In this document: piece by piece, positions 14,156 through 55,892 of the stretch
Layout: the number at the start of each line of letters is the position of its first letter
Position numbering within the stretch: the stretch's first letter is position 1
Notes under the pieces: model-generated
The model's input: only the letters and a program-made list of their open reading frames with translations
Databases searched by the model: none
What the model was told of the DNA's origin: nothing
Made by a program: the position numbers and the translations under genes
NCBI GenBank assembly: GCA_008690995.1
Contig: VRMN01000001.1
Span: 310,001-374,000, forward strand
DNA: 64,000 nucleotides
Direction: 5' to 3'
Source of the DNA: Porphyridium purpureum
Lineage: Eukaryota

Positions 14156-14447
14156 TGTCACAAACGGAGCTTCTTTTCTTTACTTCTTCTTCTCTCCTCC
14201 TCTACCTACTCTCTTCTTCCTAGCCTTTTTTCTTCGTTCGGCTGCCGCTCGCTCTGTTTTATACCCGCCTTCCGGCGCCGCAACGGCTTGCCCGGCGGGT
14301 TCAGCCCTCGGAATAACCCAATCCCGCGGCCCTCAACATAACTCAGCTGTACCACACGGTACACCCACAGCTGTACTTTCAGTACACTTAGGGACTGTAC
14401 CTCTGCGTACTCGCTGTACTGAGACCTGCATCAGGTCGCTCGCGACA
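14156..14447 (-). repeat. Gypsy 3' LTR
   Basis: Direct repeat of 20090-20381. Confidence 0.96.
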
Positions 14448-14953: not shown

Positions 14954-15110
14954 CTACCGTCTTGCTGCGGGCACGGCTCCTTCTTTACCGTCCAGCCATG
15001 GACACAGCTCCTTCTTTAATGTCCAGCAACGGACACAGCTCCTTCTTTATAGTCCAGCAACGGACCCAGCTCCTTCTTTACCGTCCAGCCACGGACACTC
15101 CATCTTTATT
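14954..15110. repeat. 31-bp tandem repeat (~4.5 copies) in the gypsy 3' UTR
   Basis: Unit GGACACAGCTCCTTCTTTAnnGTCCAGCAAC starting at 14969, 15000, 15031, 15062, with a partial copy at 15093. Confidence 0.92.
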
Positions 15111-15155
15111 CGAACATTTTTTTTGAGAGCAGCGACGGCCGATAGCCACCCAGCG

Positions 15156-18100
15156 TCAAACACCTTCTGCCATGTCTCGGTACGCGGCTACCAGCATGGG
15201 CGGGAGCGTCTTCTCAGCCTCCCATGTGTCGCCTCGCTTCCCCATACCCCGCCATCTCACCTTGTACTCGCGGCCTCCACCCGCAGCCCGATCTTCCACA
15301 ATTGCCTCCACCACCCAACTTGCATCTCCTCCAGCGAACACGTTCGTGCCGGCCATGTCTACCACGTCCGGGTCTGCCTTGTGCAAGCGGTTCACATGCA
15401 CGAGCTGGCCATGGAGCTCTGCGTCATCTCGGCCGTTTGCGCTGACCACGACTGCGTGAACCCCGTTCCGCTTTGTGATGCGGAAAGGTCCGAGCCACGG
15501 CTTTGTCAGCTTGCGACCCTGCCTCGTACTTGGGCACCACACGTATACGATGTCGCCCTCGGCAAACGTTTCCTTGTTCCGATGAATGTTTCTGTCATAG
15601 TACCTTGCAAACCTCTCGGCGTTCTCCGACATCTTATTCCCGGCGAGCCGATAGGCGCGCGCCAGCTGTGCGGAGATATCTTGCGGTTGCTGGCCCCCTT
15701 CAACCGCTCGCGGTCCGGCCATGCTTGCCCAGTCCTTGGCTGGCGACCCAAACATCATTTCGTACGGCGAGAAGCCGGTGGCTGCGTGGCGCGACGTGTT
15801 GTACGCGTAGGTTACAACGGACAGCCACCTATCCCAGTCGCGCGAGCTTGCACTGACGTACGCCGACAGCATCTTGCACAGGGTCGCATTGAAGCGCTCC
15901 ACCCTTCCGTTCGTCTGCGGGTGGTAGGCTGTCGTCATGAGCCTCCGGATTCCGAGTCTGGCGCAAAGCGACGTGATCACCTCACCGACAAAGTTTGAGC
16001 CCCGGTCGGACAAGATGGACTCCGGCGGGCCAAAGACAGTCAACCACGTCTGCAGGAAACTCCGCGCCACGGTCTCTGCCTTCTCGTCCGGGAGCGCCAC
16101 GGCAACCGCCCATCGCGTCCAAGCATCCATCATGACGAGCACCTTGATATTTCCCGTTCGCGTCTCCGGACTGATGGTGAGGATGTCCATGCCTACAATT
16201 TCAAAGCGTCTGGACGCCGAGTACTGCACCATCGCCGCGTTCCGGCGGGGTGGTGGTGCCTTGCGCGCTATGCACTCGTGGCAGCACCGAACGAACTTCC
16301 GAACGTCTTCTGTCCACCCGGGCCACCACCACTGCGCGTCGGCTATCCTCGCCGCCGTCCTCGCCGTCCCCATGTGAGCTGACAGCGGGGCTCCGTGATA
16401 GACGTTGAGAACTGCCGACACAAGCGCGTCAGGGACCACCCGCCTGGGCATGTCTTTCAGCAACGCAAACACAATCCCGTCTTCGTCCACGATATACTCA
16501 GGGAAGGAGTACTTTGGCGCGGGTCCTGATAGGTTCTTGAGCTCCGCGCAGATTTGCTCGTCCTCTGCGTACGCTGCTCTGAGCTCGTCGTCCGTGGGCA
16601 CAGCGTATAGCGCCCCACTGTCTTGCGTGTCCCGTACCTCCCGGACCTCTTCTTCCGTGCCAGTGTCCAGAGGAGTACGCGATAGCGCATCGGCCACGAT
16701 ATTCGCTGCGCCTGGCTTGTGCTTCACGTCAAACTCGAAATCTTGCACGCGCATGATCCACCTTGCCGTCCGACCCCGTGGCTCTTTCTGGCGAAGCAGC
16801 CACAGCAGCGCCGAGTGATCCGTCACGAGAATGAACTTCTTGCCGAACAGATAGTGCCTGAACTTTTCCATGGATAGTATGGCACCCAAGCACTCTTGCT
16901 CCGTGACGCTGTAGTTCAGCTCTGCGCCTCGGAATGCCCTTGAGTAAAAGGCCACCGGGCGCCGCTGGTCCCCTTGAAGCAAGACCGCGCCAATGCCCAC
17001 CTGGCTCGCGTCGACTTCAAGAACCATCTCGGCGGCCGGATTGAATGCAACCAGGACTGCGCTACCGTCGTCCATCGGATCACCTAGCGCATGGCGTAGG
17101 TCTATGAACGCGGCGCGCTGGTCGTCCCCGAATCTGCTCGCCCACTCTGCGCCACCGGCCGTCTTCCGGTGGAAGCCACCTTTCTTGTCCGTCAATCCGA
17201 GCCCAGTCAGCGCTCGCCTCAGCGGGAGGGCACGCTCCTCGAAGTTCGGTATGAAGTTACGAAACCAGCCGACCAGTCCCAGGAACCGCTGCAGGTCCTT
17301 CGCTTCTTCTGGCTCTGGCCACTCCAGGATTGCCCGCGTCTTATCTACCCCAGGCCGCAAACCTTGCGGGCCAATGCGATGGCCCAGAAACTGTACTTCT
17401 GCCAGAGCAATCTTGCACTTGCGGGCCGACAGTGTAAGTCCCGACGCCGCGAACCTTCGCAAGATCTGACGAAGTCCTTCCACATGTTCCTCGAAGGTCT
17501 CATGTCCCACTGTCAGATCGTCAATGTAGATCTGCGCGTGTGCATGGCGCATAGGGCCCAAAATCCGGTTGTTGAGTCGCTGAAACGTTGGCGGGCTATT
17601 GCAGCAGCCCTGCGGCAGACGCGTGTATTCAAATAGCCCCTCACGTGTGATCATGGCAGTCAAATGCATGCTTTCTGGCGCAAGGGGCACCTGGAAAAAC
17701 CCGTCCTTGAGATCGAGAGCGCTCTTCCATCGGCGCCTCGAAAGCCAGTCGAGCATCTCCCCAACGTCTGGGATTGGGTACCTGTCCTTGATTGTGATTG
17801 CATTGAGCGGGCGAAAGTCGGTAGTCATCCGATACGATCCATCTGGTTTCCGGATCAGTACGTTGGCTGCTGCACACTCCGACGTGCTCGGCTGCAGCAC
17901 TCCCTTAGCGACAAGGGCTTCGACCAGGCTGCGCTCAGCCTCGTTCTCGGCCTCTGAGCGCCTGCGCACTTTGGCCACCAGAGGGCGCTGGCCCGGTTCG
18001 ACAGTGATGGTGTGTTCCACCAGGTCCGTTAATCCCATGGACGGCCTGAACAGCACCCACGCCTCAGCTAGGACGTCGCCGACTCGTTTGCGCTGCTCGG

Positions 18101-18764
18101 GCTCGAGATGCCCAAGCTCGATGGCCGCGGCGTTGCGCAGGGCTTCCTCTTTCTCGGCCGCGTGCTTCTGCTCCAGCTGGGCGATTCGACGATCAATCTC
18201 GCCCGGTTCTTCAAGATGACCGATGTGTTCTGGGCCCGGCAGACCACTCACTTGCTCGAACGGTAGAGAACCTCCACGCTTGAAGAACACAGCTTGACCT
18301 GGCAGCACGGCCGCGACTTCTCGAACCTGGAAGTCCCAGCCGATTAAGAGATCTGTCTTGAGGTGTTCCGCCACTCGGACCGTCTCGCACGGAAAAACGA
18401 AAGACCCGAGATGCAGATCCAGAAACCCAACGCTGACTCTGCCCAAGGAGGCGCCGTCCGGCCCTCGCGCTCCCCAACTTGACGGCTGCGTTTTCAAGCC
18501 GAGCCGGTCAGCCACGCTCGGGCTCACCCATGTTGAGTTTGCGCCCGTGTCCAGAACTGCCAGTGCGACCACTGCCTGGCCACATGCGGTGAGCTTCACC
18601 CGCAACGTCGGACTGTTGTCCGCACGCACGGCCAGCTCCGCGTCGCCGTCTTGTTCCTTGGCGTACGCCGCGCCTTGCAACTCTGCCTCACCTGAGGCAT
18701 CGCCCGGCTCCCACCATTCCATGCAGGGGGCAGCTACTGCTTGCTGCCCCACTGCCCGTTTTTT
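15156..18764 (-). CDS. pol: Gypsy Pol (PR, RT, RNase H, integrase, chromodomain), entered by -1 frameshift
   Basis: LDTGA protease, RT YIDD, RNase H VDAS...E...TDH, integrase H-H-C-C and SDRGSNF, GPF motif, chromodomain WVVEAIV...EYKVRWRG...DTWE. Confidence 0.95.
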   Translation of the reverse strand, partial: KKRAVGQQAVAAPCMEWWEPGDASGEAELQGAAYAKEQDGDAELAVRADNSPTLRVKLTACGQAVVALAVLDTGANSTWVSPSVADRLGLKTQPSSWGARGPDGASLGRVSVGFLDLHLGSFVFPCETVRVAEHLKTDLLIGWDFQVREVAAVLPGQAVFFKRGGSLPFEQVSGLPGPEHIGHLEEPGEIDRRIAQLEQKHAAEKEEALRNAAAIELGHLEPEQRKRVGDVLAEAWVLFRPSMGLTDLVEHTITVEPGQRPLVAKVRRRSEAENEAERSLVEALVAKGVLQPSTSECAAANVLIRKPDGSYRMTTDFRPLNAITIKDRYPIPDVGEMLDWLSRRRWKSALDLKDGFFQVPLAPESMHLTAMITREGLFEYTRLPQGCCNSPPTFQRLNNRILGPMRHAHAQIYIDDLTVGHETFEEHVEGLRQILRRFAASGLTLSARKCKIALAEVQFLGHRIGPQGLRPGVDKTRAILEWPEPEEAKDLQRFLGLVGWFRNFIPNFEERALPLRRALTGLGLTDKKGGFHRKTAGGAEWASRFGDDQRAAFIDLRHALGDPMDDGSAVLVAFNPAAEMVLEVDASQVGIGAVLLQGDQRRPVAFYSRAFRGAELNYSVTEQECLGAILSMEKFRHYLFGKKFILVTDHSALLWLLRQKEPRGRTARWIMRVQDFEFDVKHKPGAANIVADALSRTPLDTGTEEEVREVRDTQDSGALYAVPTDDELRAAYAEDEQICAELKNLSGPAPKYSFPEYIVDEDGIVFALLKDMPRRVVPDALVSAVLNVYHGAPLSAHMGTARTAARIADAQWWWPGWTEDVRKFVRCCHECIARKAPPPRRNAAMVQYSASRRFEIVGMDILTISPETRTGNIKVLVMMDAWTRWAVAVALPDEKAETVARSFLQTWLTVFGPPESILSDRGSNFVGEVITSLCARLGIRRLMTTAYHPQTNGRVERFNATLCKMLSAYVSASSRDWDRWLSVVTYAYNTSRHAATGFSPYEMMFGSPAKDWASMAGPRAVEGGQQPQDISAQLARAYRLAGNKMSENAERFARYYDRNIHRNKETFAEGDIVYVWCPSTRQGRKLTKPWLGPFRITKRNGVHAVVVSANGRDDAELHGQLVHVNRLHKADPDVVDMAGTNVFAGGDASWVVEAIVEDRAAGGGREYKVRWRGMGKRGDTWEAEKTLPPMLVAAYRDMAEGV
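18727..18764 (-). promoter_or_regulatory. -1 programmed ribosomal frameshift signal
   Basis: A AAA AAC in the gag frame, 7-nt spacer, 8-bp stem GGGGCAGC/GCTGCCCC. Pol is in the -1 frame. Confidence 0.88.
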
Positions 18765-20032
18765 GGTCCGTGGCTCAAGCCACCGTCCGGATACGGCGCA
18801 CGTGGTGCTCCACCTTGGCCCGCGGGGCGATGCACTCCCCCATCGGCCCGTGGCCATCCATTGCGGCAATCCCTCTTCAAGTGTCCAAGTTCGCCGCACT
18901 GCCAGCACTGCGGCTGTCCGGGCAAAGCAGTCGGAAGGGCTTGGCGCTTGGCCTGTGGCCCGAAGCTCTCGACCTGGTACACATCCTCTGCGTACAGGCC
19001 GTAGTCACGACCGCGCTTCTGGATCGTCGTGCCCGGGACCTCGCCTATGCGGCCCACTCTCTCGCGGCCAAGCGGGCGTTGCTGGCCAAACGGAGGAAGC
19101 GGGCGACTCGGTAGACCCTTCAAACCATCTTCACCGACGTGGTCCACCAGAGCTGAGCGCAGCTTGGTGAACGAGACGCTCACGCCGATCATGCGGACCG
19201 TGTTCTTCAAGAACGCGGAGTCCATGGCTTCGATCAACACGTCCTTCTTGTCCTCGTCGTCCATCTTGAGCCCGTCAGCCTTGGTCTCCAGGTCGTTCAG
19301 AAAGACACTCAAGCTGGCTTTCCCCGGTTGGAACTTCATGCGGCGGAGCTCGGCTTTCAAAGCCTGGCGGTGCTCGACATTGAAAAACATGGACTCCAGT
19401 GCCTTCCACACACGGTTCGCTGCGCCGGGCCCTGCCGCATCGACATCTTTGATCACGGCTTGGTACCTTGACACCGCGGGCCCACCAAAGCAAGCGCTGA
19501 TGTGCTCCGCGACATTGTCCCTTGCGAGGCCAAGTGTGTCCGCGTGCGACTCCCAGCAGGTCCGCGACGCGAAGAAATGAGCGTCACCTGGGGCCTTGAT
19601 AAGAACTTGAGCACTGCGGACCGCCTCGCGAAAGGTTGCTGCGAGCTTCAACTGCTCCTCCCAGAACGACCGATCCATGGTACGGCCCGAGGTCTGCGCC
19701 GAGTTGCGGCTGTGCGCCTGGGCCTCCAGTTCAGCAACGCGAGCGCGAAGGGCCATCACTTCGGCTCCGCCCGGTGCAGCTAGGTCTCCAACCGGGACAA
19801 CGGACTCTGCGTCGGCTGCGGCTTCCAGGTGACCTGGCGTCCCCTGCTCATTGTCGACAGCTTCACCCTGGTGCTCCACGACAGGCCCGTCTTCTGGCGC
19901 TGGGCCCCCGGCACGAGCGGCCCCTGCTTCGATGATCGCGGATCCGCTGCGTGGCTCCCCAAGTCCTGCCACAACTGCTGCCTCGCGAGGCCCACCTGCC
20001 TCTCCAACTCCTGCCCCACGCCCACGCGCCAT
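18734..20032 (-). CDS. gag: Gypsy Gag
   Basis: CCHC knuckle CWQCGELGHLKRDC; position directly after the 5' LTR. Confidence 0.88.
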   Translation of the reverse strand: MARGRGAGVGEAGGPREAAVVAGLGEPRSGSAIIEAGAARAGGPAPEDGPVVEHQGEAVDNEQGTPGHLEAAADAESVVPVGDLAAPGGAEVMALRARVAELEAQAHSRNSAQTSGRTMDRSFWEEQLKLAATFREAVRSAQVLIKAPGDAHFFASRTCWESHADTLGLARDNVAEHISACFGGPAVSRYQAVIKDVDAAGPGAANRVWKALESMFFNVEHRQALKAELRRMKFQPGKASLSVFLNDLETKADGLKMDDEDKKDVLIEAMDSAFLKNTVRMIGVSVSFTKLRSALVDHVGEDGLKGLPSRPLPPFGQQRPLGRERVGRIGEVPGTTIQKRGRDYGLYAEDVYQVESFGPQAKRQALPTALPGQPQCWQCGELGHLKRDCRNGWPRADGGVHRPAGQGGAPRAPYPDGGLSHGPKNGQWGSKQ

Positions 20033-20089
20033 CCTATCCCACTCCCAACCCCACACTTCCTCGCTCCCACACGACCAATTTGCAAATTA

Positions 20090-20381
20090 TGTCACAAACG
20101 GAGCTTCTTTTCTTTCCTTCTTCTTCTCTCCTCCTCTACCTACTCTCTTCTTCCTAGCCTTTTTTCTTCGTTCGGCTGCCGCTCGCTCTGTTTTATACCC
20201 GCCTTCCGGCGCCGCAACGGCTTGCCCGGCGGGTTCAGCCCTCGGAATAACCCAATCCCGCGGCCCTCAACATAACTCAGCTGTACCACACGGTACACCC
20301 ACAGCTGTACTTTCAGTACACTTAGGGACTGTACCTCTGCGTACTCGCTGTACTGAGACCTGCATCAGGTCGCTCGCGACA
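20090..20381 (-). repeat. Gypsy 5' LTR
   Basis: Direct repeat of 14156-14447; TATAAAA on the minus strand followed by a purine-rich R/U5. Confidence 0.96.
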
Positions 20382-20385
20382 TGTG

Positions 20386-23300: not shown

Positions 23301-23644
23301 GGTTCCTTCGCGATCAAGGCTTCGAGCTCAAAGAGAGTGTGTTGCTTCAAGATAACAACTCTGCCATAGCGCTGATGAAACACGGCAAGCCAACCTCCAT
23401 GAGGACAAAGCACATCGGAATCCGGTATTTCGTCGTGCACGACGCAGCGGATAGAGGCGACATACGCGTCGTGTATTGCCCAACCGAAGATCTGACCGCA
23501 GATCTGTTAACGAAACCTCTCCAGGGCAAGGTCTTTGAAAAGCACCGTGCGAACTTGCTCGGCTCCGCGAGCACGAAACACGTTGCTTATGACAACACGC
23601 GCCAAGGAGGGAGTGTGTTAAGATGTGTGGAGCATGGCGGTTAA
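20386..23644 (+). pseudogene. pol: Copia-1 Pol, 3' part (integrase core, RT, RNase H)
   Basis: SDPES...AERAIR integrase core, KARVVAGG, LKKALYG, HVDD, SSTEAE, TKHI, ADLLTKPL. Stop codon lies inside the 3' LTR. Confidence 0.92.
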
Positions 23645-23922
23645 CGGTTAGTGGTTAACTTTTAGTCGTTAAGCCGTTAAGCTGATCACTGATAAGGGAC
23701 GTGACTTGAGAAGGGAAACTCTCGGCTGCGGTTGTTGGCCGGCGGTAGGAGCGTAGGAGAATGGGTCCGTTGGCTTATAAGTCGCGCGCGAAGCTCGGTG
23801 CTGAGCGCGAGCGCGGTGGGCTTCGGTAGGGAGTGCGAGTTGGAAAAGTTATACGTTTAGAACTTGATAAACTTGGTCGTTGGATTGGAGGTTGTCCATC
23901 AGCGGAGCGAGGTTTCCGAACA
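23616..23922 (+). repeat. Copia-1 3' LTR
   Basis: Direct repeat of 11896-12202, followed by TSD GATTC. Confidence 0.97.
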
Positions 23923-25279: not shown

Positions 25280-25462
25280 TGTCACAAACGGAGCTTCCTT
25301 CTTCACTTTCTCTATTCTCCTCTACCTCTTCTCTTCTCCTTCCTAGCATTTTTTTCTTATTGTTCAGCTGGTGCTGGAACTATGTTATACCCGCCTTTCG
25401 GCGCCGCAACGGCTTACCCGGAGGATTCAGCCCTCGGAAAAACCCAATCCGGCGACCATCAA
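25280..25462 (-). mobile_element. Truncated, diverged LTR of the same gypsy family, with an adjacent tRNA-type PBS
   Basis: Starts TGTCACAAACGGAGCTTC like 14156 and 20090 and stays alignable to about 25462. On the minus strand it is followed by AG then TGGCGTCTTGTGG. Confidence 0.85.
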
Positions 25463-25644
25463 GATAAAGTGCGTCTCAAACAATTAGCACACTGCAAAAT
25501 TTGTCCATTTTCATAGTAAATTATGAAATTTTACCATGAAGACGTGTTTCGGAGGGGGAAACAGGATGCTCAAATAAATAGCACATCAGTATTTTGGCGC
25601 GCCCGGCGGCGGCCAGTCGACAAGAAGGCGATCTCGGGCGGGAA

Positions 25645-26659
25645 ATGAAGCGCGCGGGTGCGTTGACCGAGGCGGAGAAGCGTGCCATCTGGGGATGGCG
25701 CGCGGAGGGGCTGAAATCGTCCGATATAGCCACGCGCGCGGATCGGTCCAGAAATGCCGTAAAACGCTTTCTGGACCAGCCCGACGCGACCCCAGGCTAC
25801 GTCGGCAATCAGAATGCCCGTAAATTCACAGGACCCGCTCAAACGCGTGTTTTTAATAAACTTAGAGCGGCTCCTAGGAGCCCTCTAAAGGCTCTCACAA
25901 TGCAGGTCAATACCGGCAGGTCCCAAAGGAAGCCGGTAAGCCGTGAGACAGTGAGGCGCAATATGGCCGATGATCTGTCCTTTCGGCGTGCCATCGTCAG
26001 GCAGCCTCTTTCCCGTGAGAATCGGCTGCGTCGCGTGGCCATTTGCCATGCAAAATCTGAACAAAATTGAAGAGCATAGAAAAGTCATCTTTACGGACGA
26101 AAAGAAGTTCAATTTAGATGGCCCTGATGGGTATTCTGGTCAGTGGGTCCGGACAGGAGAGTTCTCGGATCGAGTCCGCCGTCATACGGGCGGCGGAAGT
26201 GTGATGTTTTGGATGGCAATTTCTTCCGCTGGGAAGATGGCGCTCCTGAAGACCCCAGCAAGGATCACTTCAGGAAACTATGTGGCCATGCTGGAGTCCT
26301 CTCGAGTGGCGACCATCTTCAGTGAAACCCATCCAGAAGGATGGACATTCATGCAGGACAATGCCCCTGCTCATGCGGCGCGGAATACAAAGTCCTTCTT
26401 CGCGCGCGAAGGATGGCATGTAATGGATTGGCCAGCGTACTCGCCAGACCTGAACCCGGTGGAGAACTTTTGGAGCAGTATGTCGCGCCAAATTTACGCC
26501 GGAAACGGGCAGTATGAGTCTCTCTCGGAGCTGGAGGCTGATATCATGGAAGTGTGGGCGTCGATCACGAACGCAGAGGTTCGGAGCCTTGTGACGGGGT
26601 GGAATGCACGTCTACACCGGTGCGTGAACAAGGAGGGCGCGAAATTTCAGAACTTATAG
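25645..26659 (+). pseudogene. Tc1-like DD34E transposase A, frameshifted near 26040
   Basis: N-terminal HTH region, then FTDEKKFNLDG, MQDNAPAH, WPAYSPDLNPVE (34 residues between D and E). The two halves are in different frames. TIRs not convincingly found. Confidence 0.9.
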
Positions 26660-26730
26660 TCTTTAGAGCTCCGTACAGTCTCTCTTTGTCAAGTGTGCTA
26701 TCAGTCTGTGTCTTTTATTTTGAGGATTTG

Positions 26731-27257
26731 CAGTATATAAGGCACATTTTTACCTATATAAGGCGAAATGTACCGCTATACGGCGAACATGTACCGATGT
26801 AAGGCGAAGAATATTATATTCGTACATGGTCGCCGTATATCAATACCTTGTTTCCGTACAGTATGTCCATGTACCGATATAAGGCGAGTCTCACATATAT
26901 ACGGCTTATAGTACACATATACTTCTTTATGGACATATACAATACGACGACTTGCAAGATGTAAACCACTACGTATCTATTTAAGGCAGCACGTACAATG
27001 TACTCATACAATGTACATGTGTAACTCCTTATACAAACATATAATGCATGCTACATAATGAACCCATGTATTGTACATATATACACTTCGGCGTACGTAT
27101 GTAGGATAGTACGCTACAAGATTTACGTCGCGATGAACACATAAAAGGTGGTGCAGATAGAATGTACTGATATAATGTACACAGATATACCATCATGTAC
27201 GTATAAAATACGCGACCCATAATGCACCCGTGCAATGTACGTATATAAACTGCGGTG
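26731..27257. repeat. AT-rich degenerate repeat tract (TATAAGGCGAA.ATGTACCG-like units, direct and inverted)
   Basis: Sharp drop in GC content; recurring TATAAGGC and ATGTAC words; one inverted unit near 26823-26840. Confidence 0.6.
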
Positions 27258-27259
27258 TA

Positions 27260-28804
27260 CAGTCCTGGCCAAGATGTTTGCAAAACCTGCATTTTGGTCC
27301 AAAAAATTGGATCTTATAGTAAAACAGCCCGTTCTAATAGAACATTTATTTTTAACTCTTTTTTTAACATTGTCAACATCGAGCATGACGGTGAACCAAG
27401 GCGCGGCGCGCGCGTTTTTGTTTTCCCCAGACCATCAGAAGGTGCTCAAAGGATCTTCGCTCGCTGATCCATCTCCTCGTGCGCAAGTGGAGAGTCTCCA
27501 GATCGAAATTGAGCGCGCAACGGCCGGACAATGGCGCCGTGGCTATCGGAACACGAAAAGGGGCAGATCGACGCCCTTGCGGGCCAGGAACTGTCGGTGC
27601 GAGCCATTGCGAAGGCTCTGAAGCCTCGCCCAGATCGCTCGCGACCGTCCTATGCAACTGTGAGCCATTATCTGGCGTCAAGGGGGCGCCGAATTGTCCG
27701 CAAGAAGCCAGGTCCGAAACGGCTTTTGAGGCGCAAATCGGAACGCCGCATCATTCGCGCCGTATCTGTTGATGCACTGACGTCCGGACAGGTGGTTCAC
27801 GAGCTGCACTTGCAGTGCTCGGCCAGGACAGTGCGTCGGACGCTTCAAGCAGCAGGCTTTCCTCGCTACAGGCGAGTCTCGCGGAAACCTTCGCTGTCGT
27901 CTGACAACATCAGGAAGCGTTTGGCGTTTGCCACCGCATGCATTGCGAAACCAATGGCTTTCTGACATCAAGTGGTCTTTTCAGACGAGAAGATTTGGAG
28001 CTGCGATGGCCCATTCGGCTCCTCGCAGCGATGGGTCGACTGTCGCGTCAAGTCAAGTTCGTACGCCAGGCGCCAGCACTCTGGAGGTGGCAAGGTTCAC
28101 ATGTGGGCCGGTATGTCCCTGCGCGGCCTAACAATGGCCGTCTTCGTCGAGTGTGGCTTGAATGCCGTGAAGTATCAACAAGTCTTGCTGGAAGCCTTGC
28201 TTCCGTTCGGCCTGGAAATGTATGACTTCAATTTCACTTTCCAGCAAGACAATGCCCCGGCACATACGGCCAACTCGACCAAGGCGTGGCTCGACGCACT
28301 CGGCGTCACTGTGCTGCCGTGGCCTGCAAGGTCTCCGGACCTTAACCCAATTGAAAACATTTGGGGTGTCTTGTCGCGCGTGGTTTACCGAAAAGGCCGC
28401 CAGTTCGCACGCGTCGCAGAACTTAAGGCTGCCGTCCTTGCGGCGTGGGCGACCGAGGCCCAAAAGTACGTAGTTCCACTGTTGGAGTCCATGCCTCGCC
28501 GTCTTCAAGCTGTACTAGACGCGCGCGGCCACCACACCAAGTACTAAAGTCTCACCCTTCTTGATCTTCGTGTTTCTTTCTTACGTTCCAAAATTTGCGC
28601 CCCTCGTCAATAACCCCTTTTTGCTGTCTCCATTACCCATGCGCTCTTTCCTTGCCTTTTCCTCCCGGTTGGACGCTCCCCCGTGTTTCTTGGGACGCGC
28701 GATCGATTGGCGTGCTCAAAACATACCCTTGTCTATAAAGATTCTTCACTTTTACACGAATTTCACTTTTTATGAGGGTGTTGCAAACATCTTGGCCAGG
28801 ACTG
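27260..28804 (+). mobile_element. Complete Tc1-like DNA transposon B (1545 bp)
   Basis: Perfect 24-bp TIRs CAGTCCTGGCCAAGATGTTTGCAA; TA target duplication at 27258-27259 and 28805-28806. Confidence 0.96.
27531..28547 (+). pseudogene. Tc1-like DD34E transposase B with one in-frame TGA (27963-27965)
   Basis: FSDEK, QQDNAPAH, WPARSPDLNPIE. Both ORF halves are in the same frame, and the stop sits where Trp is usual. Confidence 0.9.
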
Positions 28805-29014
28805 TATTCGGTTTTTATGCAACCCGTACCGCAACCCATAGTAAAACATAGTAAAACATAGTAAATAGCTAGAGCCGTTAAACCGGTAGCCCTTCTAGCA
28901 TGAAACCGTTAAGCCGGTAGGACAAACGAAACGTTCAAGACGTGAAGCAGCGCACAAGTTCGGGCTGGCGGAGTTTACGGAGCGCGGGAAGCGGGACGAA
29001 GAAAGTTCCTTACG

Positions 29015-30859
29015 ATGCCGAATGAGGACACTCTGAAGCGTTACCGTGCAATTGTGTGCGAGTTTTTGGGAATGGTACGAGGCGAGGCTGTCGATGTCTG
29101 GACGCCGGAAATGATTCAAGGGATCAAACCGGAGCACGTGGTTGACTTTTTTAAAACAAAAGTTTACGGCTCCTGTGCGCCAACGGCAAGTCAGCGGCCA
29201 GGAGGGCGCACGAGCAGCTTGGTATTATACAGAAAGGCGATTTCGCACTGTAAGCCATCACGAAATACGGAGTGGACGTATATTATCGAGACTCCCGCGG
29301 GCGGTGACGTTGTCACTAGGTACTTTGGGAATCCCACTAGGTGCCCAACTGTCAACGATTACATCAAGAAACTGCGTAGACTTGAAATCCGCAAATTGGG
29401 CAAGGAATCAAGTGCGAGAAGACCAATGTCGCGGGCTGAGTACAAGCGAATGATTGAAATTCTCGAGAGAGAGAAAGAGTTTAAGTACTCGGCCATTTGC
29501 AGGCTACAGTTCCATTTGATTGCGCGGCGGGATGATACTTGTCGGGCCTTCAAGTGCAATCTTCTTCAACATGAGCGGTTCAAGTTTGCGCTCACCATGA
29601 AGCTCGCGTGGTCGAAAAACGTTCTAGAAGAGCGAGACTGCCCTCGCCAAATTCTTCTAGCGTCTGAGCAGCATTGTGTGTTTGTAGCACTTGCGCTCTT
29701 TCTGGAGACAAACACAGACAACACGAATGAGTGGCTCTTTGACAGCAGTCCAAAGCTGCTGAAAGACAGGCTCATGAGCCACCTCCAAACCAAAGTTTTC
29801 AGTGGTCTTGTCAAAGTGGGGACGCATTCGGTGCGGAAATTTGCGCTTACACATGCGCGAGAAAACGGGTGCTCCCGGGACGATGCAAAGAGTCGTGGCA
29901 GATGGAAAGTGTCAAGAGACATTTTGAATACATACGAAGATGTGAGTTTGCCGTACCCGGACGCGCGCGTTGCCAGCGCATTGTCGCTTGGTGGTGCAAT
30001 ACGATATCATGTGGATGAGAGCAAAGTGACAGACGACTGAATAATTGCGCACGTGGTGCCAATGACAGCACGTGAATACCCTCGCGGAGTTGCGGTGGAG
30101 TTAGGGAAAGCATTGTTATGGCACTGCTTCGCTACGGACGCAGACTTCGGCGGCGTGTCGATTCGTATCAAGCGCGCGTATGCTGCGAGCAGCGCAAGCT
30201 GCCAACGCCCTGTCAAGCGCATGAAAGCGTGCATTAGTGGACACGAGGGTGTCGTCAATATCGACGATATACCAGAAGACGACGCACCAACAGCTGGCTC
30301 CGCGCGAGACGGCACGAGAAGCCATGACGTGCACGTTCTCGCCTCCGTCAATCGGTTGGAGGGAAGTATAGAGCACAAGATTGTAGGGCTTCAATCGGAG
30401 ATGAGAGCTCAAGCCGCAAAGCTGGAAAGCTCCATGGAGCACCTCAAACAGACTGCAACGCGAGCCTTGCGAATGCCAGTCCGTCGCAGCGTGCACATTA
30501 AATCTGTCGGGACCCCTGGTATACTTGACGGCCAAACGTCACGCGTGGACCCTGAGAGGCCAGCCGCTCTTGCCAAGAATCCCAGGACTATTCACGACTT
30601 ATGGAATGAGTACATGTTCGGATTGGTCGGCAACAAACCAGCGAAGGATTTTACCGCACCCGAAAGAGGGCGCGTCAAATTTAAATACTGAAGGAGAAAC
30701 GTAGTCTGGCAAGAATTCGAAAGACTTGTAAGACAAGGTCATGATTCAACAAGTGCGTGTGACAAAGTTTATGAAGCCTACGGCCGGGCAGCTTCGGTGA
30801 CCGAAATTATCGACAAAATGAAAGCTGCTCGCAAAACCGGAGGACATCATGCGCTGTAG
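29015..30859 (+). mobile_element. Crypton-type tyrosine-recombinase transposon ORF with a GCR1_C-like C-terminus and two in-frame TGA stops
   Basis: YR catalytic residues: LIARRDD (R), GTHSVRK (HxxR), RGRW, TYED (Y); also GNPTR. C-terminal PRTIHDLWNEYMFG...KPAKDFT...KY*RRNVVW. One frame with stops at 30038-30040 and 30689-30691, final TAG at 30857-30859. No RT nearby. Confidence 0.82.
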
Positions 30860-31989
30860 AAAACCAAAGAAGTGACTTGACGATGCTTCGCATAACTCCA
30901 GTGGCTCACGTTGTGCGCATGTGTCGACAAAGTGCTGCTCGGTCTGTCCACAAGGAAGCAATCTGTCAGCGATGATAAGACTGGACGCCGACTTCACAGA
31001 GGAACCCACTTTGCGGTGCGCACACAAAAATCCGTACGCGTATCGTTGACGACCAGCGGCAACTCACTCCGATCAACGGCACGTGACGAAGTGCAACATT
31101 CCACCCGGGCGCTTTGCTGTGACGGCGGCGCCCGCTCGTCTTTCCTCCCATCGACAACTTTTTTCAATTCATGTACAAATTCTATTTCTATTTCCAACAG
31201 TTTGACACGCTTGTGTTCGATGCCAAGTCCTGCGCCGATTTCGTGCACCCTGGAGCACGCCATTCGCGTTCGCAAGGGACGCCGGCACATAGTCGAGAAT
31301 ATTGCATATCAAGGTCATGGCGCCGCGGCTATACGCAATATTTTTACTCGGCTCAAGGAATTCGGAGATCTGGCGCTATTGCTCCGTCGCCACTTCCATA
31401 CTTCGTCTGCTTACCAGCACCATCTGCCGCACCACTGCCGTCTCGCACAAAAGGCGCATATCGCATGGTCCGCTTCTCCTCCATTCATCACCGCTGCTCC
31501 TGTTTCCGCCTTGACTCTGGAAATTATCACCGAGCAATAATTTTCCACATACAGTTCCTCAGAGCCTGTGCCATAGTCAGCCGACCTTCCGCTGAATTGA
31601 GCTCTATGGCGTAGCTCATTGAGTTTTCCTTTAGCGTGAATGAGTTCATGTTAGGTCGCATTTCCCGAAGTGCGCAACCGCACAGCCTGCGCTTACAACG
31701 GACCCGCGAATTAATCAAGATTCTCGAACTCAACCGCGTCCGGCTCCGTCTGCAGCGACTCAAAAAAAGGAGACTGCACACTTTGCGACAGCTGGCTTCG
31801 AAGCCAGCATGCCTAAGCACCGGATCTGCATAGCTGCAACCGCCCCTCTGTGTGGCGGCTGCATTATTGAAGCCCACATTTTCCATTGTAGCCGTCTCGT
31901 GATCAACTCCAGAAAGCACGCTGCGCGCATTCTCAATCTCACTCCGCATGGAAGTGACCCACTCCCCGAACGCTTTTAGGCGGCTGCGC

Positions 31990-32581
31990 AAAAAGAAGTT
32001 CAACCTGGACGGACCAGATGGTTTCCACAAGACGCGGCTTGAGCGTTCGGCGGACGTTCAAGACATTTGGACGCGACATTCTGGCACCAGTGGATGCATG
32101 GTTTGGGGTGCAATTTCTGCAAGAGGAAAGATTCTCCTTGATTTTATTGAGGGGACATTTACGGCTGCCAAGTATGTTTCCATGCTTCGAGCGGACAATG
32201 TGCTGGACCGCTGCCGTCAGATAGTCGGCCCGAACATGACTCTTCAGCAGGATAACGCGCCAGTGCACACAAGTCGCCTGGTTAAGAATTTCATGAATGA
32301 CGAGAATGTGGAGCTTCTACTGGCCAGCGTACTCGCCGGACTTCAATATCATCGTGAATCTGTGGGGGATACTAGCGCGCAAGGTTCACGAGGGTGCAAG
32401 GCAGTATCAGACAGTGCTGGAGCTCAAGAATGCCATTTTATTGGCTTGGGAGACTTTGGAGCAGCCTGTACTGGCCAATTCTTACGCGTCTCTGCTGAAA
32501 CGCGTATTCAATTGTGCGTATATTCGAGGCGTATACATGCAAGGAAATCGAGACCAATTCCGATTATCTTTGGCTGAGTAA
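31990..32581 (+). pseudogene. 5'-truncated Tc1-like transposase fragment C
   Basis: KKFNLDGPDG, MVWGAIS, QQDNAPVH, then a frameshift into WPAYSPDFN. Confidence 0.85.
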
Positions 32582-49148: not shown

Positions 49149-49848
49149 ATCGCAGAAGCGCGAGCGTATCCGGTTCCCTGCCGAGCAATGCCGAGGTCTC
49201 CGATGCAGACCCTGTGTCTGTGCTGGACGCCCTTTCTTTCTCAGCGTGAGGGACGTGGTCCGAATCGTCAATAAATACATGTGTGCCATTAGTGTCTGAA
49301 TATGCGGAGCGATCGCTGCGGCGATATTGGTCAAGTATACATACGCGCCGTAACGCCGTGAACGATTGAACCCCCTGGCGAAAGGCAGGGATCGCACCCA
49401 ACTGGGCGGGGCGCGAACAGTATCGGAGCGGAGAACGTGGCGGACCTCAGCGGCCACGCCGGCATCCTGTCCGGAAAATGAGCGTGGTCACATGCGCCCG
49501 CCCACCGCATTTCTCCCGCACGGAACTGATGACCTGGATGCGGACCGCATTGGCGCTGCGCGTGTTCTGCAAAATCGGCAGTCTGCGACGCGTCCAAAAC
49601 GCCGGCACATGAAATTTGCCGCGCCTGCGGTGATTCGAGCCTGCCACCCCAGTGCCCGTCCCAGTCATCCACACCCCACCGTCCCGCACCAAACCACATC
49701 ACGCCATGCGCCGAGCGTGTCATGCACCGCCGCTGAATTCAAGACGCGGTCGGAACGAGCTCATCCGTTACCTGCGCACGCATTGACGCATCGCACCCAA
49801 AAAGTACAGCATGAGCATGGCCAAGTACAGCTATGTACAGTTATTTAC

Positions 49849-50203
49849 TGTTGATGTACGTGCAAATGGTTAATGGTTGAATGGTTATCCGGGTCAACGA
49901 CTTGGACTGTTTGGACTGTTTAATGTGTTCGGTCGGGTGCGAGCCTGCGTGCTAGCACGAGCCATGGGCACGTATGTTTGCGACGTTTCTAGAAGTCCAC
50001 ACTGACGTTTCCTTGTCGCTTTGCATCTCCGCGCCGCCGCCACAGTGCAGCTACAGGGGTATAAAATGCTGCAGGGCCAAGGAGTAGGGTGGAAATTTTG
50101 AGTGTAGCGTTTGGGTAGGCGAATATGTTTTTGACGCGAGTGGTATTACAAAGTAAACCGTTTCTTGACTTTGCAGGGTTTACGCCGGGGGCGTACTTCA
50201 ACA
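49849..50203 (+). repeat. Copia-2 5' LTR
   Basis: Direct repeat of 55180-55534; TATAAAA at 50060-50066. Confidence 0.97.
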
Positions 50204-50329
50204 CAAAAACATTCAACGCTTCCTCCGCTTCGTCAAGAGTACGAGCGGAAGTAGGATCTCCGGTCAAGGGTACGGGGGGACAAGGCCGACGGCGCTGACA
50301 GGAAGTTCGAGCGGCGTGCGGCAGACAAA

Positions 50330-51361
50330 ATGGCCAAGAAGATTGGCGAAAAGGGAGTAACGGAGGGACTCCCGCTACTGAGGTATGATGCGACCGAGAT
50401 GCGGCCGGCCGAGGAAGTCACGGAATGGCTCCGTGCGCTTGGAGGCTACACAGCTGTTGAATTTGGGTTGCTCGGAGCGATTTTCGACCTCAATAATGCG
50501 AGGTACCCAGAGGGCCCGGCCCTACCGGACGCAGAGGAGCCCGACAACTGGAGAGACAAGGAAATCGCCAAATCACAGTTGAGCACCGCGCTCAAATGGA
50601 GCGCGGATATGGAGCTCGCGAGGTCCAGAATCTATGCGATTATGCGCGGACAGCTGTCTACGTCTTCCGTTGCGGCTCTTTCTGCTCGCCCGCAGTTTGA
50701 GATGCTTGAAAGATCTCGCAACGATCCTCTCCAGCTGAAAAATCTAATCGTCGTGGTGCACCTGACACCGAATGGCGCATCCGTGGATCGTTGCCGTACA
50801 TTTGCACGTGAGCGGTTTCAAGCTATAGAAATTGGAGCAGATTCTCTGGATGATTTCAAAACCAGGTTTGCGGCCGCAGCGATGGTTCTCGCCCTTGTAG
50901 GCGAGGAGATGAGTGCAGCGCGTCAGGCGGAAGAGTTCTTCCATAAGTTGGAGCGGTCGCGCTTCGCAGAGGCAATTCGCCAAGCCCACAATGCCGAGCG
51001 ACAATTTGCAAGCGTTCAGGACGTGGTTTTGTACGTCTCCGCGTACAAGTATGCGCCTGGTTATGTGTCCGTTTCAGTTGCGCAATCCAATGAAGCCCAG
51101 TTAGCCATCGAGGCGGCCACTGTAAGTGGTGAAGCGATAGCTGCGGTTGCAAAAGCTGATGTAGGCGGTTCCAAGGGGAAGTGTCATTTTTGTGGTATCC
51201 CGGGACACCTGGAGAAGAACTGCTGGAAGAAGAAGAGGGCACTGGAAAGGAACCAGACCAGGGACGCTCACACACGAACCATGGAAGAAAAACTTGGCGA
51301 GTGCCAGCGTCAACTTCAGGAACTTAAGCTGGAGCTCAAGAAAGAGCGCACGGTCGAGTGA
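50330..51361 (+). CDS. gag: Copia-2 Gag
   Basis: CCHC knuckle CHFCGIPGHLEKNC; homologous to Copia-1 Gag (LPLLRY, GQLS, NDPL). Ends at TGA in frame with pol. Confidence 0.9.
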   Translation: MAKKIGEKGVTEGLPLLRYDATEMRPAEEVTEWLRALGGYTAVEFGLLGAIFDLNNARYPEGPALPDAEEPDNWRDKEIAKSQLSTALKWSADMELARSRIYAIMRGQLSTSSVAALSARPQFEMLERSRNDPLQLKNLIVVVHLTPNGASVDRCRTFARERFQAIEIGADSLDDFKTRFAAAAMVLALVGEEMSAARQAEEFFHKLERSRFAEAIRQAHNAERQFASVQDVVLYVSAYKYAPGYVSVSVAQSNEAQLAIEAATVSGEAIAAVAKADVGGSKGKCHFCGIPGHLEKNCWKKKRALERNQTRDAHTRTMEEKLGECQRQLQELKLELKKERTVE

Positions 51362-54300
51362 GGAAGCGGCCCGTTGCGACACGTGTATGTCCACCGGGCG
51401 ACAAACAGGGAAGCGGCCACAGTGGGCCTTGATACAATGGCTTCGGAGCATATCTTTTCGAGTGGTGAGGCGGTTACGAACGTGCGCAAGACGGACCGGA
51501 AGGTCGTGCTGCACGGAATTGACGCCGGATCAAGTGGAATATTTATTGACGAGATTGCCGACACCAAATTTGGCGAAGTGTACTACTCGCAGAAAGTGGC
51601 CGGGAACATCTTGTCATTCGCCAAGCTGAGGAACGAAGACAAGGGCACCAAGTATGACATGGCCGGGGACGTGTTTGTTGTTCTGGATGTTGACAACAAG
51701 GAAGTGCGTTTCAGACAGGACCAGGGGCTGTATGTGGCGGATATCTGTTGCGTAAGTGGTAAGATAAACGCATACGCAGCTCCTTGCAATGGCCTGACGC
51801 ACGATCTTGACAACATTCCCGCACACAAATGCTTCTCCACTGACAGCCGCCACAACTCCATGGAGCGTTCAGCTTTACCGTTACCTAGTGGCGGCAAACC
51901 TTCGCCCTTCACAAAGCAAGAGATAGCCCGGGCAGAACAAGCGCGCGACTTACAACGTCGCTTGGGATTCCCTTCGTTCGACGTGCTGAAAAAAGTGCTT
52001 AGGCGCGGGGATGTTGAAAATTGTAATTTGGCCGCGCGGGATGCAGAGAGAGCCGAACAATTGTTTGGCCCAAGCGAAGCCGCGATCAAAGGAAAGGCAA
52101 CTGGACACAAGCCTACGGAAGTTGGCTACGTCCCGATAAGAAATGAGGAGGTCTACCAAGAGATGCATTCGGATATCCACTTTCTCTGCGGACAAGCCTT
52201 CTTGATTTCTGTCGTGAAACCAATGCACTTCATTCTGACAACAGCGATCAGAGCAAAGACGTCATGGGAGCTGCGCCGGGCACTGCAAGAACAAATTGCC
52301 AGTTTGCGAGGTCACAACGTGGTGATCAGGGTCATCAAGTCGGACCCGGAATCGGGGATTGTTGCTATCGTTGATGACATGAAAAGGTCCGGCATATTAC
52401 CAAATGTCACGGGAGCGAAAGAGGCCGTACCAGCAGTGGAGCGTGCCAATCGAACGCTGAAGGACATAGCGAGGGCTGTCATCCATGGCCTACCCTTTGC
52501 ATTGCCGACCAGCTTGGTTCCAGCGCTAATGAAGTATGTAACTCACCGGGCCAACATCGTACCAAGCAGCACAGGTTGGCGAGATGACGAGACTCCGTGG
52601 ACCAGAATGACCGGGCGAAAAGTTAGCAGCACAGCCGATGTGAGTCTCGGTTTTGGCGATTACGTTCTCATCATGAATGCCAAGGTGGACAACACGATGA
52701 CACCACGCGCCACCGGCTGTATAGCTCTATACCCGGTAGGCAATGTTGAAGGAACGTGGGCTTTTCTAAACCTCGCGTCGCAGAAAGAGTTGCGCAGACA
52801 ACGGTGGAGGAAAACTGTCATTACACAAGAGGTTGTTGCCGCTGTTAACGCCATGCGTGGCACTGCGCGCCTTGAACTCGCGACAGAAGATCATGAGCAT
52901 GAGGCAGAAAAACATGACACCGCCGGACGGGAGGCAGGCAAGCCAGCTGGGGCAGCAGCGACTCGAACAGCTAGTGGGTTGACCTTGTCAGCCGGAGCGT
53001 TTAGCGAGACACGTGCAGCGCGTTCTGCGAATGAACATGAAGAAACTCTGGAGAATTCGCGCACGTCAGCAGTAGTAGAATCATCACAACCGAACCGTAA
53101 TCCAGGAGCGGGAGAAAACGCAGAGGAAAATCCGGGAGTGCGGGTCGAAGCAATCGAGAAAAGAATTGAGGAATTATCTCGAAAAGAGGCCATTCTGCAG
53201 GAACAGATCCACGCGCTTGACAAACGTGCTGCTGCCTACCAGGTCAGCGACGATCACGACGTCTTAGGCGAAGGTCAGGCTGTTCAAGTCGGCGTGGTCG
53301 AAGGGGCACCTGCAGAGTGGGATCTCGCAGATTGCACAATGACAACGAAAAACGTACTGGACGGACATGGTGAACAGGCTGGACCGGCTTCTGTCGGCGG
53401 ACTTAGCACCAAAAGAACGGCAGCGGATCAAGGCGGAAGTGACGGGTGCAATACATACGCAGGGGAAGCAAAAAGGCGTAGAATTAGGCTAGCTCTAATT
53501 ACAGAGTTTGTCCAAGCGCACTGTTTGAAAGCGCCGACCGTCTCATGGTTGAGAGCAGTCCAGGAGTATGGCGAGCCTGCACTTGAATCGGTCATGAGCG
53601 AGCTCGTGCAGTTGGGGTCCAATGGTCACGACGTGTTTGAGCCTGTGACAAGGAGACTCAGTGAAGACGAGTTGCGCAATGTTTTGCCCGTGCATTTGTT
53701 TGTGACGGAGAAACGTGATCCACAAACCGGAGAGCTTGTGCGCTTGAAAGCTCGACTGGTTGCTGGGGGTGATCGACAGGATCCGGAGTTGTACCCAAAT
53801 ACGTCGTCCCCAACAGTCGCTACTGAGTCGTTGTTTGCGCTTGCTGCCATGTCAGCAACACAAGGGAGAAAGGTTGCCAGTGTAGATTTTCCAGGTGCGT
53901 ATTTGAATGCAGTGATGCCAAGCGGTGATCCACCCGTTTTCGTTCGGTTCGCAAAGGCGCTGGCGAAGTGTATGACGACCGCTGATCCGACACTCCAGAG
54001 CCATTTGTCTGCTTCAGGTACATTAGTCTGTCGCTTGAAGAAAGCATTATATGGTTGCCGGACGAGCGCAAAGTTATGGTATGACCATCTATGTCGAAGC
54101 CTCGCGGCGTTGGGATACCAAAGAAGCATGGTAGACTATTGCGTGTTCAGAAGCGATGAAGACGACACCTGGTTAGCTTTACACGTGGACGACATGAAGA
54201 TTATGGCTGTAAACGACGCCGCGATCGTCAAACTGGTAAAGGGACTCGAGCCGGAGTACGGAGTGCTCACGATGCGCAGCGGCAGTGGGATTGAATATTT

Positions 54301-55204
54301 ACAAATGGTTTTTGACTATAACCAACCTGGTCAAGTTACCGTCAGGATGCCCGCATACGCGGACAAGATCATTGAGCAGGCCGAGCCATTTGTGCTGGGT
54401 AAGGTCGGTGGCAAAACCCCCGCATTGGACGACCTGTTTCAGGTTCAAGACTCGCCATTGCTGGCTGCTTCCTCCGCGAGAGCCTTCCACACGACAGCCT
54501 GTCAACTTCTTTATCTCAGCAAGAGGGCGAGACCAGATCTGCTGGTCGCGGCATCATTCTTGACGGGTCGAGTACAAGCCCCAACCGAACAAGACAGAGA
54601 AAAGCTGCGCAGGGTTGTGCAGTACTTGCAAGGAACGCGCGAGCTGGGGCTCACACTTGGGTGCGTCGGAGCGCCGCGCGTGCACTGTTTCATTGACGCG
54701 TCCTTTGGTGTGCACAGCGACATGAAGAGCCACTCTGGCTGCATGGTCAGCCTGGGCCGCGGAACGGTGTACGGGAAGAGCAGCCGTCAGAGTCTCGCGT
54801 CCAAGAGCTCAACAGAGGCAGAGCTAGTCGCCATCAGTGACTGCATAGGTCAAGCTCTCTGGATCGAGAGGTTGCTGCGAGGGCTCGGTGTGGAGTGCCT
54901 CAGCACCCTGTTGTACCAAGATAACGAGGCCACCATGAAATTAGTTCGTAACGGGCGTCCCAACTCGTCGCGGACCCGACACATTGCTCTGAGGCACTTC
55001 TTCGTCAGCGACAGAGTTGCATGCGGCGAGATAGAGATGACGTACTGCCCCACGGAGCAGATGGTGGCGGACGCTCACACCAAGCCCCTGCAAGGAAAAG
55101 CTTTCCGCTCACTTCGTGAACGCATGTTGGGCGTTGAGGTTGCGAATCTAGCGCAGGCTAACACGGACCGACGGGAGTGTGTTGATGTACGTGCAAATGG
55201 TTAA
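51362..55204 (+). CDS. pol: Copia-2 Pol (PR-IN-RT-RH), presumably translated by readthrough
   Basis: LDTMASEH, SDIHF, SDPES, VERANR, KARLVAGG, LKKALYG, HVDD, SSTEAE, TRHI. No ATG precedes the protease Asp; stop lies inside the 3' LTR. Confidence 0.93.
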   Translation, partial: GSGPLRHVYVHRATNREAATVGLDTMASEHIFSSGEAVTNVRKTDRKVVLHGIDAGSSGIFIDEIADTKFGEVYYSQKVAGNILSFAKLRNEDKGTKYDMAGDVFVVLDVDNKEVRFRQDQGLYVADICCVSGKINAYAAPCNGLTHDLDNIPAHKCFSTDSRHNSMERSALPLPSGGKPSPFTKQEIARAEQARDLQRRLGFPSFDVLKKVLRRGDVENCNLAARDAERAEQLFGPSEAAIKGKATGHKPTEVGYVPIRNEEVYQEMHSDIHFLCGQAFLISVVKPMHFILTTAIRAKTSWELRRALQEQIASLRGHNVVIRVIKSDPESGIVAIVDDMKRSGILPNVTGAKEAVPAVERANRTLKDIARAVIHGLPFALPTSLVPALMKYVTHRANIVPSSTGWRDDETPWTRMTGRKVSSTADVSLGFGDYVLIMNAKVDNTMTPRATGCIALYPVGNVEGTWAFLNLASQKELRRQRWRKTVITQEVVAAVNAMRGTARLELATEDHEHEAEKHDTAGREAGKPAGAAATRTASGLTLSAGAFSETRAARSANEHEETLENSRTSAVVESSQPNRNPGAGENAEENPGVRVEAIEKRIEELSRKEAILQEQIHALDKRAAAYQVSDDHDVLGEGQAVQVGVVEGAPAEWDLADCTMTTKNVLDGHGEQAGPASVGGLSTKRTAADQGGSDGCNTYAGEAKRRRIRLALITEFVQAHCLKAPTVSWLRAVQEYGEPALESVMSELVQLGSNGHDVFEPVTRRLSEDELRNVLPVHLFVTEKRDPQTGELVRLKARLVAGGDRQDPELYPNTSSPTVATESLFALAAMSATQGRKVASVDFPGAYLNAVMPSGDPPVFVRFAKALAKCMTTADPTLQSHLSASGTLVCRLKKALYGCRTSAKLWYDHLCRSLAALGYQRSMVDYCVFRSDEDDTWLALHVDDMKIMAVNDAAIVKLVKGLEPEYGVLTMRSGSGIEYLQMVFDYNQPGQVTVRMPAYADKIIEQAEPFVLGKVGGKTPALDDLFQVQDSPLLAASSARAFHTTACQLLYLSKRARPDLLVAASFLTGRVQAPTEQDREKLRRVVQYLQGTRELGLTLGCVGAPRVHCFIDASFGVHSDMKSHSGCMVSLGRGTVYGKSSRQSLASKSSTEAELVAISDCIGQALWIERLLRGLGVECLSTLLYQDNEATMKLVRNGRPNSSRTRHIALRHFFVSDRVACGEIEMTYCPTEQMVADAHTKPLQGKAFRSLRERMLGVEVANLAQANTDRRECVDVRANG

Positions 55205-55534
55205 TGGTTGAATGGTTATCCGGGTCAACGACTTGGACTGTTTGGACTGTTTAATGTGTTCGGTCGGGTGCGAGCCTGCGTGCTAGCACGAGCCATGGGC
55301 ACGTATGTTTGCGACGTTTCTAGAAGTCCACACTGACGTTTCCTTGTCGCTTTGCATCTCCGCGCCGCCGCCACAGTGCAGCTACAGGGGTATAAAATGC
55401 TGCAGGGCCAAGGAGTAGGGTGGAAATTTTGAGTGTAGCGTTTGGGTAGGCGAATATGTTTTTGACGCGAGTGGTATTACAAAGTAAACCGTTTCTTGAC
55501 TTTGCAGGGTTTACGCCGGGGGCGTACTTCAACA
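55180..55534 (+). repeat. Copia-2 3' LTR
   Basis: Direct repeat of 49849-50203. Confidence 0.97.
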
Positions 55535-55892
55535 TTTACAGCTGTGTACAGCGTTGTGCAGAGTATAGTGTACCTCCACTGTCGGCAACTTTTCTGTCGA
55601 AGCATGTGCAGACAGTGCAGGAACGCAGCAAACGTGTACGAGTGCGTGAGTGTTTTTGGGAGAAAGGGGAGTGTCAGATTCGTGTCCCGATCGGACGGTC
55701 TGTGAGGGGAAGAAGCGATGCACGTAGTGGTGGTGGTTGTGGTGTGTGTATATAATACACACGGGTGTTTAGGAACTGGGGTGGAGTGGGAGTGAAGAGG
55801 GGGGCGGGGAGAGAGGCAGAGAGAGGAGGAGGAAGGGAGAGGAAAGCAGGTGGTCAAGTGCAGAGCGTGCAGAGCGAGCAGGGGTCGGAGTC

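Follow-up and report, generated by a model that had tools for sequence, protein, structure and literature searches.

To our knowledge, the only experimental demonstration of an element that primes reverse transcription with its own RNA concerns Tf1, which is a gypsy element, and in copia elements such priming has only been predicted, for a single plant lineage. Tf1-type self-priming reportedly involves supporting U5-IR-like RNA stems. The copia elements Osser, Bryco, Bianca and FunCo1 are half-tRNA-primed, and their site is complementary to an internal stretch of a tRNA. In Tf1, the RNA's first 11 bases pair with a site that follows the LTR, and the RNase H cut falls between bases 11 and 12 (excerpts of PMC7175516 and PMC4600332). 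For the plant Ty1/copia TAR lineage (Houba, Osr-1), self-priming was predicted from a match of at least 10 bp between the post-LTR site and the LTR (excerpt of PMC6317226). Fungal GalEa elements have no tRNA site. They carry a Conserved Hairpin Site with its partner downstream, no LTR complement was found for them, and they are not Tf1-like, according to an excerpt of PMC5445492. GalEa-like elements have also been reported from Porphyridium cruentum, and the metazoan GalEa primer site is TGGTAGCAGAGC (excerpt of PMC3587641). With respect to the CoDi groups of diatoms, the word 'tRNA' does not occur in the main text of PMC2806351 and no primer site is described in excerpts of it, although its supplement may list primer sites, and the excerpted text of PMC2774666 contains neither 'PBS' nor 'self-prim'. 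No report of self-priming in this lineage was found in the literature on copia elements, algae, diatoms or Porphyridium that lies outside of subscription journals, Repbase and GyDB.

Anatomy of Copia-2 and its closest described relatives

The stretch of Porphyridium purpureum DNA analyzed here, termed the window, is 64,000 nt in length and contains an intact Ty1/copia retrotransposon, Copia-2 (49849-55534), all features of which are given on the plus strand. The 5′ LTR (49849-50203, TGTTG...CAACA) and the 3′ LTR (55180-55534) are both 355 bp and are 100% identical, and the target-site duplication TTTAC is present on the outer side of each (49844-49848 on the left and 55535-55539 on the right). 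Paired TG...CA LTRs with a target-site duplication are characteristic of Ty1/copia elements. Because the LTRs are paired and identical and are bordered by TTTAC on both outer sides, the end of the Copia-2 LTR is known independently of the sequence match described below. The gag open reading frame of 343 aa (50330-51361) displays a CCHC knuckle by eye and ends with a TGA in frame with pol. The pol frame (51362-55204) has 1280 codons without a stop and encodes protease, integrase, RT and RNase H, i.e., the copia order with a copia-type RT. The RT corresponds to Pfam RVT_2 at residues 780-1008 (E 6e-18). Catalytic-type motifs of protease, integrase and RNase H were placed by eye, and the Pfam search of pol did not detect the integrase at E<=0.001. 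The polypurine tract GGGAGTG (55173-55179) fits the RRGRG[TC]G|TGT[TC] pattern found in relatives. The RT-RNase H aa sequence is 100% identical to 'Copia protein [Porphyridium purpureum]', the cluster of which comprises four annotated, near-identical accessions. With its open frames, its LTR pair free of differences and these four accessions in the species, Copia-2 is suited to a direct test.

Directly after the 5′ LTR, with no spacer, the primer-binding-site position is occupied by CAAAAACAT (50204-50212), which is not a TGG-type site. Its exact reverse complement is ATGTTTTTG (50125-50133), a predicted self-primer inside the LTR that starts at T|A, 79 nt from the LTR end, and is followed by AC. 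The original prediction of these two positions was reproduced, as was the location of the match downstream of TATAAAA; this TATA-like sequence, whose role is putative, is found at 50060-50066, 65 nt upstream of the match, and is not conserved among relatives.

A second copia element of the window, Copia-1, serves as a comparison. Its 5′ LTR is at 11896-12202 and its 3′ LTR at 23616-23922, with a GATTC target duplication. The site directly after the LTR, TAAACGTAT (12203-12211), is the reverse complement of a predicted self-primer, ATACGTTTA (12131-12139), which starts 72 nt from the LTR end; all are on the plus strand. The RT-RNase H sequences of the two elements are 43% identical, and their nine-mers differ in 4 of 9 letters, with every change matched on the partner strand. 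As was noted previously, both matches begin with T|AT, end at a T-T mismatch and have no spacer. The LTRs were also said to be dissimilar, and a self-blastn of the window (E<=1e-5) reveals no match between the two LTR families. However, the chance of such a match had been put at about 0.1% per LTR. Computed with each LTR's own dinucleotide make-up, a match at any position of the LTR has a probability of 0.8% for Copia-2 and 0.14% for Copia-1. The match of one element by itself is thus weak evidence.

Copia-2 resembles Tf1 and Tf2 of Schizosaccharomyces pombe, and the Tf1/sushi elements of Ty3/gypsy including Tj1, as these are described in excerpted accounts, in that the site behind its LTR is complementary to sequence within the LTR. 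It differs from Tf1/sushi in that it displays the copia domain order and an RVT_2 RT, and not the organization of gypsy elements. In addition, the duplex is 9 nt in Copia-2 and 9-19 nt in its lineage, as opposed to 11 nt in Tf1, and cleavage in Copia-2 is predicted by analogy. Copia-2 would thus work like Tf1 without being a Tf1/sushi element. With TAR, as excerpted, it shares a copia organization and self-priming predicted from a post-LTR/LTR match. However, TAR is described there as a land-plant lineage, and the 9 nt of Copia-2 are below the 10-bp cut-off of PMC6317226. There are no plant proteins among the top 120 matches of either RT search. The TG/CA ends and the size of Copia-2 are similar to those of diatom Ty1/copia elements (CoDi groups, Maumus 2009), and in a tree that has no CoDi references Copia-2 is grouped in one lineage with unnamed diatom copia proteins. 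Unlike GalEa as described in the excerpts, Copia-2 has no TGG site, its complement is upstream and inside the LTR, and neither TGGTAGCAGAGC nor the hairpin arrangement is present. The 64,000-nt window contains no tRNA gene.

Self-complementarity in relatives of Copia-2

An alignment of 39 RT-RNase H proteins was used as query, and 110 loci were fetched, of which 30 are from genome contigs and 80 are the best among 522 from metagenomes. No relatives of Copia-2 were found in the viral contigs searched. Loci L081-L110 are eukaryote-type copia elements in contigs filed as bacterial metagenome-assembled genomes, likely a binning contamination. Loci were considered testable when they display an LTR start defined by the polypurine tract and a downstream open reading frame; 39 of the 110 have both, and the 71 that are without one of these were left out. 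The LTR end was inferred from ACA in most relatives and is fixed independently only in Copia-1, Copia-2 and L066. As null, 200 dinucleotide shuffles per element were scanned by the same ACA rule. The rule was at first AACA and was widened to ACA after L090 was seen, and the null was given the same wider rule.

A perfect LTR match of 9-19 nt directly after the ACA end is found in 32 of the 39 testable relatives, with 0.36 expected from the shuffles. The stricter AACA end gives 27 of 39, and since L090 and L091 represent the same element, the count can also be expressed as 31 of 38. Where gag is confirmed downstream, 28 of 30 loci are positive; the two exceptions, L039 and L040, show duplexes of 11 and 18 nt that start with TCA but have a non-ACA boundary. 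The other five of the seven negatives under the ACA rule have no gag match and appear by eye to be 3′ LTRs with flanking sequence, decayed copies or cut-off contigs. Control scans of the 39 for other orientations gave one direct, no reversed and one complement-only match. A site matches the LTR of another element in only 6 of 1056 pairs, 4 of these between close relatives. Of the 71 loci left out, 21 have only a partial 5′ region. Three of these scored at least 9, and L066 and L078 also reach at least 9 once their second LTR copy or the correct start codon is taken; many of the others are without the upstream part of the LTR. L001 shows only a 7-nt A-run as a match, and the 8-nt match after CA at the distant locus L108 is too weak to count.

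These counts bear on the possibility that the matches arise by chance, or from AT-rich sequence or an assembly artefact. The 0.8% of Copia-2 alone, which is owed to a T-run, is compatible with chance, as is the AT-rich composition of the matches (77 G+C of 428 bases). Most relatives are also collapsed metagenome contigs with an LTR end inferred from ACA. Against this are the 32 of 39 that contrast with 0.36 in shuffles that preserve dinucleotides, the 0-1 matches in each of the three orientation controls, and the LTR ends that are independently fixed in Copia-1, Copia-2 and, to within one base, L066. It is the excess in the family, and not the two elements of the window, that removes chance as an explanation, and we regard this explanation as extremely improbable. 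The enrichment over shuffled controls that was proposed as a check is present, and it supports the self-priming reading of the original prediction, in which priming itself is presumed.

The distribution of the trait was mapped, also as proposed, on an RT-RNase H tree of 54 sequences made with FastTree and rooted on the distant L108; no tRNA-primed copia is included. Positives are found across the whole tree, in every one of its branches. The three Porphyridium families cluster together (0.99) as a branch of their own, and named RT proteins of Nitzschia and Fragilaria nest among positives. The RT identity of 39 positives has a median of 43% and a minimum of 31%, and they form 32 groups at 70%. 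The trait is real and lineage-wide, in a lineage that spans a red alga and diatoms, and is probably functional.

Duplex structure, proposed priming and alternatives

Within the LTR, the match begins 68-216 nt upstream of the LTR end. Its start lies on, or one base after, a YA in 29 of 31 relatives (7.8 expected), and in 22 of 31 this is a TCA (1.1 expected); we take YA and TCA at this position to be a Pol II initiator. The A of YA is unpaired in 18 of 29 elements. All 396 pairs that follow YA in these 29 elements are Watson-Crick; the scan counts only Watson-Crick pairs, and wobble pairs are lacking among the 396 since an internal wobble would end the run short of YA. Pairing extends into the LTR end by 0 or 1 base, and never by 2, in all 33 elements, i.e., the 31 relatives with Copia-1 and Copia-2. 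Thirty-two distinct 9-mers are present among the 33, and none of the 33 sites starts with the TGG of tRNA-primed copia elements. In a comparison of the sites with one another, they are not conserved in the way expected of half-tRNA-primed elements. Duplex lengths across the lineage are 9-19 nt, and the 9 bp of Copia-2 belong to the shortest class. A TATA box had been described as part of the layout, but this is no family trait: TATAWA within 100 nt upstream is found in only 6 of 33, and the spacing from TATA to the start was consequently rejected as support.

From the sequence comparisons, we consider it probable that Copia-2 primes reverse transcription with its own LTR RNA and not with a tRNA, a Tf1-like self-priming in a copia lineage of red alga and diatoms. 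Starting from the observed element anatomy, the 9-bp complementarity and the same geometry through the lineage, we infer the following steps. The copied transcripts would start at or beside the YA where the match begins (A50125 in Copia-2), and the RNA would fold back so that its 5′ end pairs with the site that follows U5. Cleavage immediately behind the last paired base (G50133), for which the element's own RT/RNase H is the probable enzyme, as in Tf1, would free a 3′-OH positioned at the terminal CA of the LTR, which may then prime minus-strand DNA. In every cycle, the primer site would be rewritten from the primer during plus-strand synthesis. With such copying the pair would remain Watson-Crick while its sequence drifts, the match would stop at the initiator, and both sides would be kept matched without two-step selection. 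In Tf1, about half of the cDNAs retain a full-length copy of the primer site at the 3′ end (excerpt of PMC11042837).

We also think it likely that tRNA priming has been given up altogether in a wide Ty1/copia lineage found in a red alga, in diatoms and in further aquatic eukaryotes. In this lineage the capped 5′ end would prime, with a copia RT/RNase H, and the site would be rewritten each cycle and its 9-19 nt would be free to vary. Its self-priming system would be distinct from that of Tf1/sushi, and probably from that of plant TAR, and the Porphyridium elements would represent a minimal 9-bp form. If true, this is a second, deep lineage of self-priming copia elements, which implies either that self-priming arose repeatedly in both superfamilies or that it is old. 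It would also bear on the proposal that hairpin priming is older than tRNA priming (excerpt of PMC3601003), and it raises the question of whether copia RNase H cuts RNA:RNA. Such elements will escape finders that depend on a tRNA site or on at least 10 matching bp.

To assess the fold-back, RNA was folded over the segment that begins at the predicted +1 and ends 60 nt beyond the site. The predicted helix reaches a mean probability of at least 0.85 in 27 of 31 relatives; it is 0.96 for Copia-1 and 0.00 for Copia-2. The Copia-2 helix (-6.5 kcal/mol) is in competition with other folds. At 37 C its probability varies from 0.00 to 0.95 with the 3′ length folded, and it costs 0.9-5 kcal/mol over the free fold. 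The fold-back helix predicted for Copia-2 is therefore marginal. Stems are also predicted inside the loop in the folded structures, which are single-sequence folds without covariation.

The marginal helix of Copia-2 would fit a self-derived primer that acts in trans, supplied either by the 5′ end of a second packaged genome or by short capped transcripts of the LTR promoter, with no RNase H cut of a fold-back. Such priming is compatible with all sequence data, and a primer length of 9-19 nt, compared with the fixed 11 of Tf1, is also in its favor. However, the intramolecular helix is predicted in the great majority of relatives (27 of 31, as above). In addition, C occupies the second position behind the match in 22 of 31 relatives, and in Copia-2 as well, and G never occurs there, a bias that resembles a cut-site or helix-stop signal, and the Tf1 precedent is one of cleavage (excerpt of PMC7175516). 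Priming in trans is thus considered improbable, and cleavage of a fold-back helix is the preferred reading.

Transcription starts were assessed with three raw RNA runs of one study (X20, X21 and X22 on Copia-1), the libraries of which are not cap-selected. Copia-2 RNA amounts to 14, 83 and 30 reads, of which many belong to an unrelated transcript at 50549-50583, and RNA depth over the Copia-2 LTR is about 4 or less. On the Copia-1-type LTR, the depth of minus-first-mate reads in X20/X21/X22 is 18/19/18 at 12106, 58/57/81 at 12124, 104/68/142 at 12131, 110/73/148 at 12133 and 154/96/205 at 12170, such that the depth already present at 12124 matches 58 of 154, 57 of 96 and 81 of 205 reads at 12170. 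In X20 and X22, depth climbs most steeply between 12125 and 12131, ending at the predicted +1. Pile-ups of 5′ ends are listed at 12036, 12098, 12115 and 12119, and none at 12131. These reads show a promoter in the expected part of the Copia-1-type LTR, with spread-out starts, many of them upstream of the predicted +1. A start at the primer is neither confirmed nor excluded by them, and a single start, as originally predicted for A50125 of Copia-2, is not supported.

Upstream starts of this kind would be consistent with a helix that has a structural role only (packaging, translation control or R-U5 closing), while priming at the site or close to it is done by a tRNA fragment or another host RNA. 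Copia-2 could also form a longer, imperfect helix if its RNA began 10-30 nt earlier (p=0.04). This upstream extension is not found in Copia-1 (p=0.49) and is seen in 1 of 31 relatives at p<=0.05, and it was rejected as a family trait. A host primer should moreover conserve its site, yet nearly every element has a 9-mer of its own (32 distinct among 33). A structural helix also has no reason to abut the CA end, to start at TCA or to be free of wobble over the 396 pairs of 29 elements. A purely structural role is quite improbable, and self-priming remains the preferred explanation.

Additional transcripts and elements in the window

The majority of the LTR reads stem from a variant LTR of Copia-1 type that lies at another locus and from which a sense transcript extends into non-element sequence (77-199 reads per run, window 12098-12202). 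This is likely a case of an LTR promoter used at a host locus. Reads and a contig also join foreign sequence to Copia-1 gag at 13146, and depth is raised over the end of gag and the start of pol; we read this join as a chimeric or truncated Copia-1 copy that is expressed. The Copia-2 LTR end (50203) is joined to two other flanks in runs X21 and X1, which represent further insertion sites of the family.

An in-frame TGA separates gag and pol in Copia-2 (51359-51361), Copia-1 (13392-13394) and the relative L063 (2045-2047), which suggests read-through. Read-through of the gag stop has reportedly been proposed for Tca2 and Tj1. A public gene model spans the gag-pol TGA by leaving out the stop and 16 codons; RNA reads over the Copia-1 gag stop (depth about 70, X21) show no joint.

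Nested in the Copia-1 integrase is an intact-looking chromodomain Ty3/gypsy element on the minus strand (14156-20382). Its post-LTR site has a perfect 12-nt palindrome, AATTTGCAAATT (20088-20077), and no match of at least 6 nt to this site is found in its own LTR. A tandem 31-nt repeat is present in the 3′ untranslated region of the gypsy element (14959-15113), and a partial, diverged copy of its LTR (about 82%) is at 25280-25467. Three DDE_3 (Tc1/mariner-like) transposase frames with a common repeat are found at 25955-32577.
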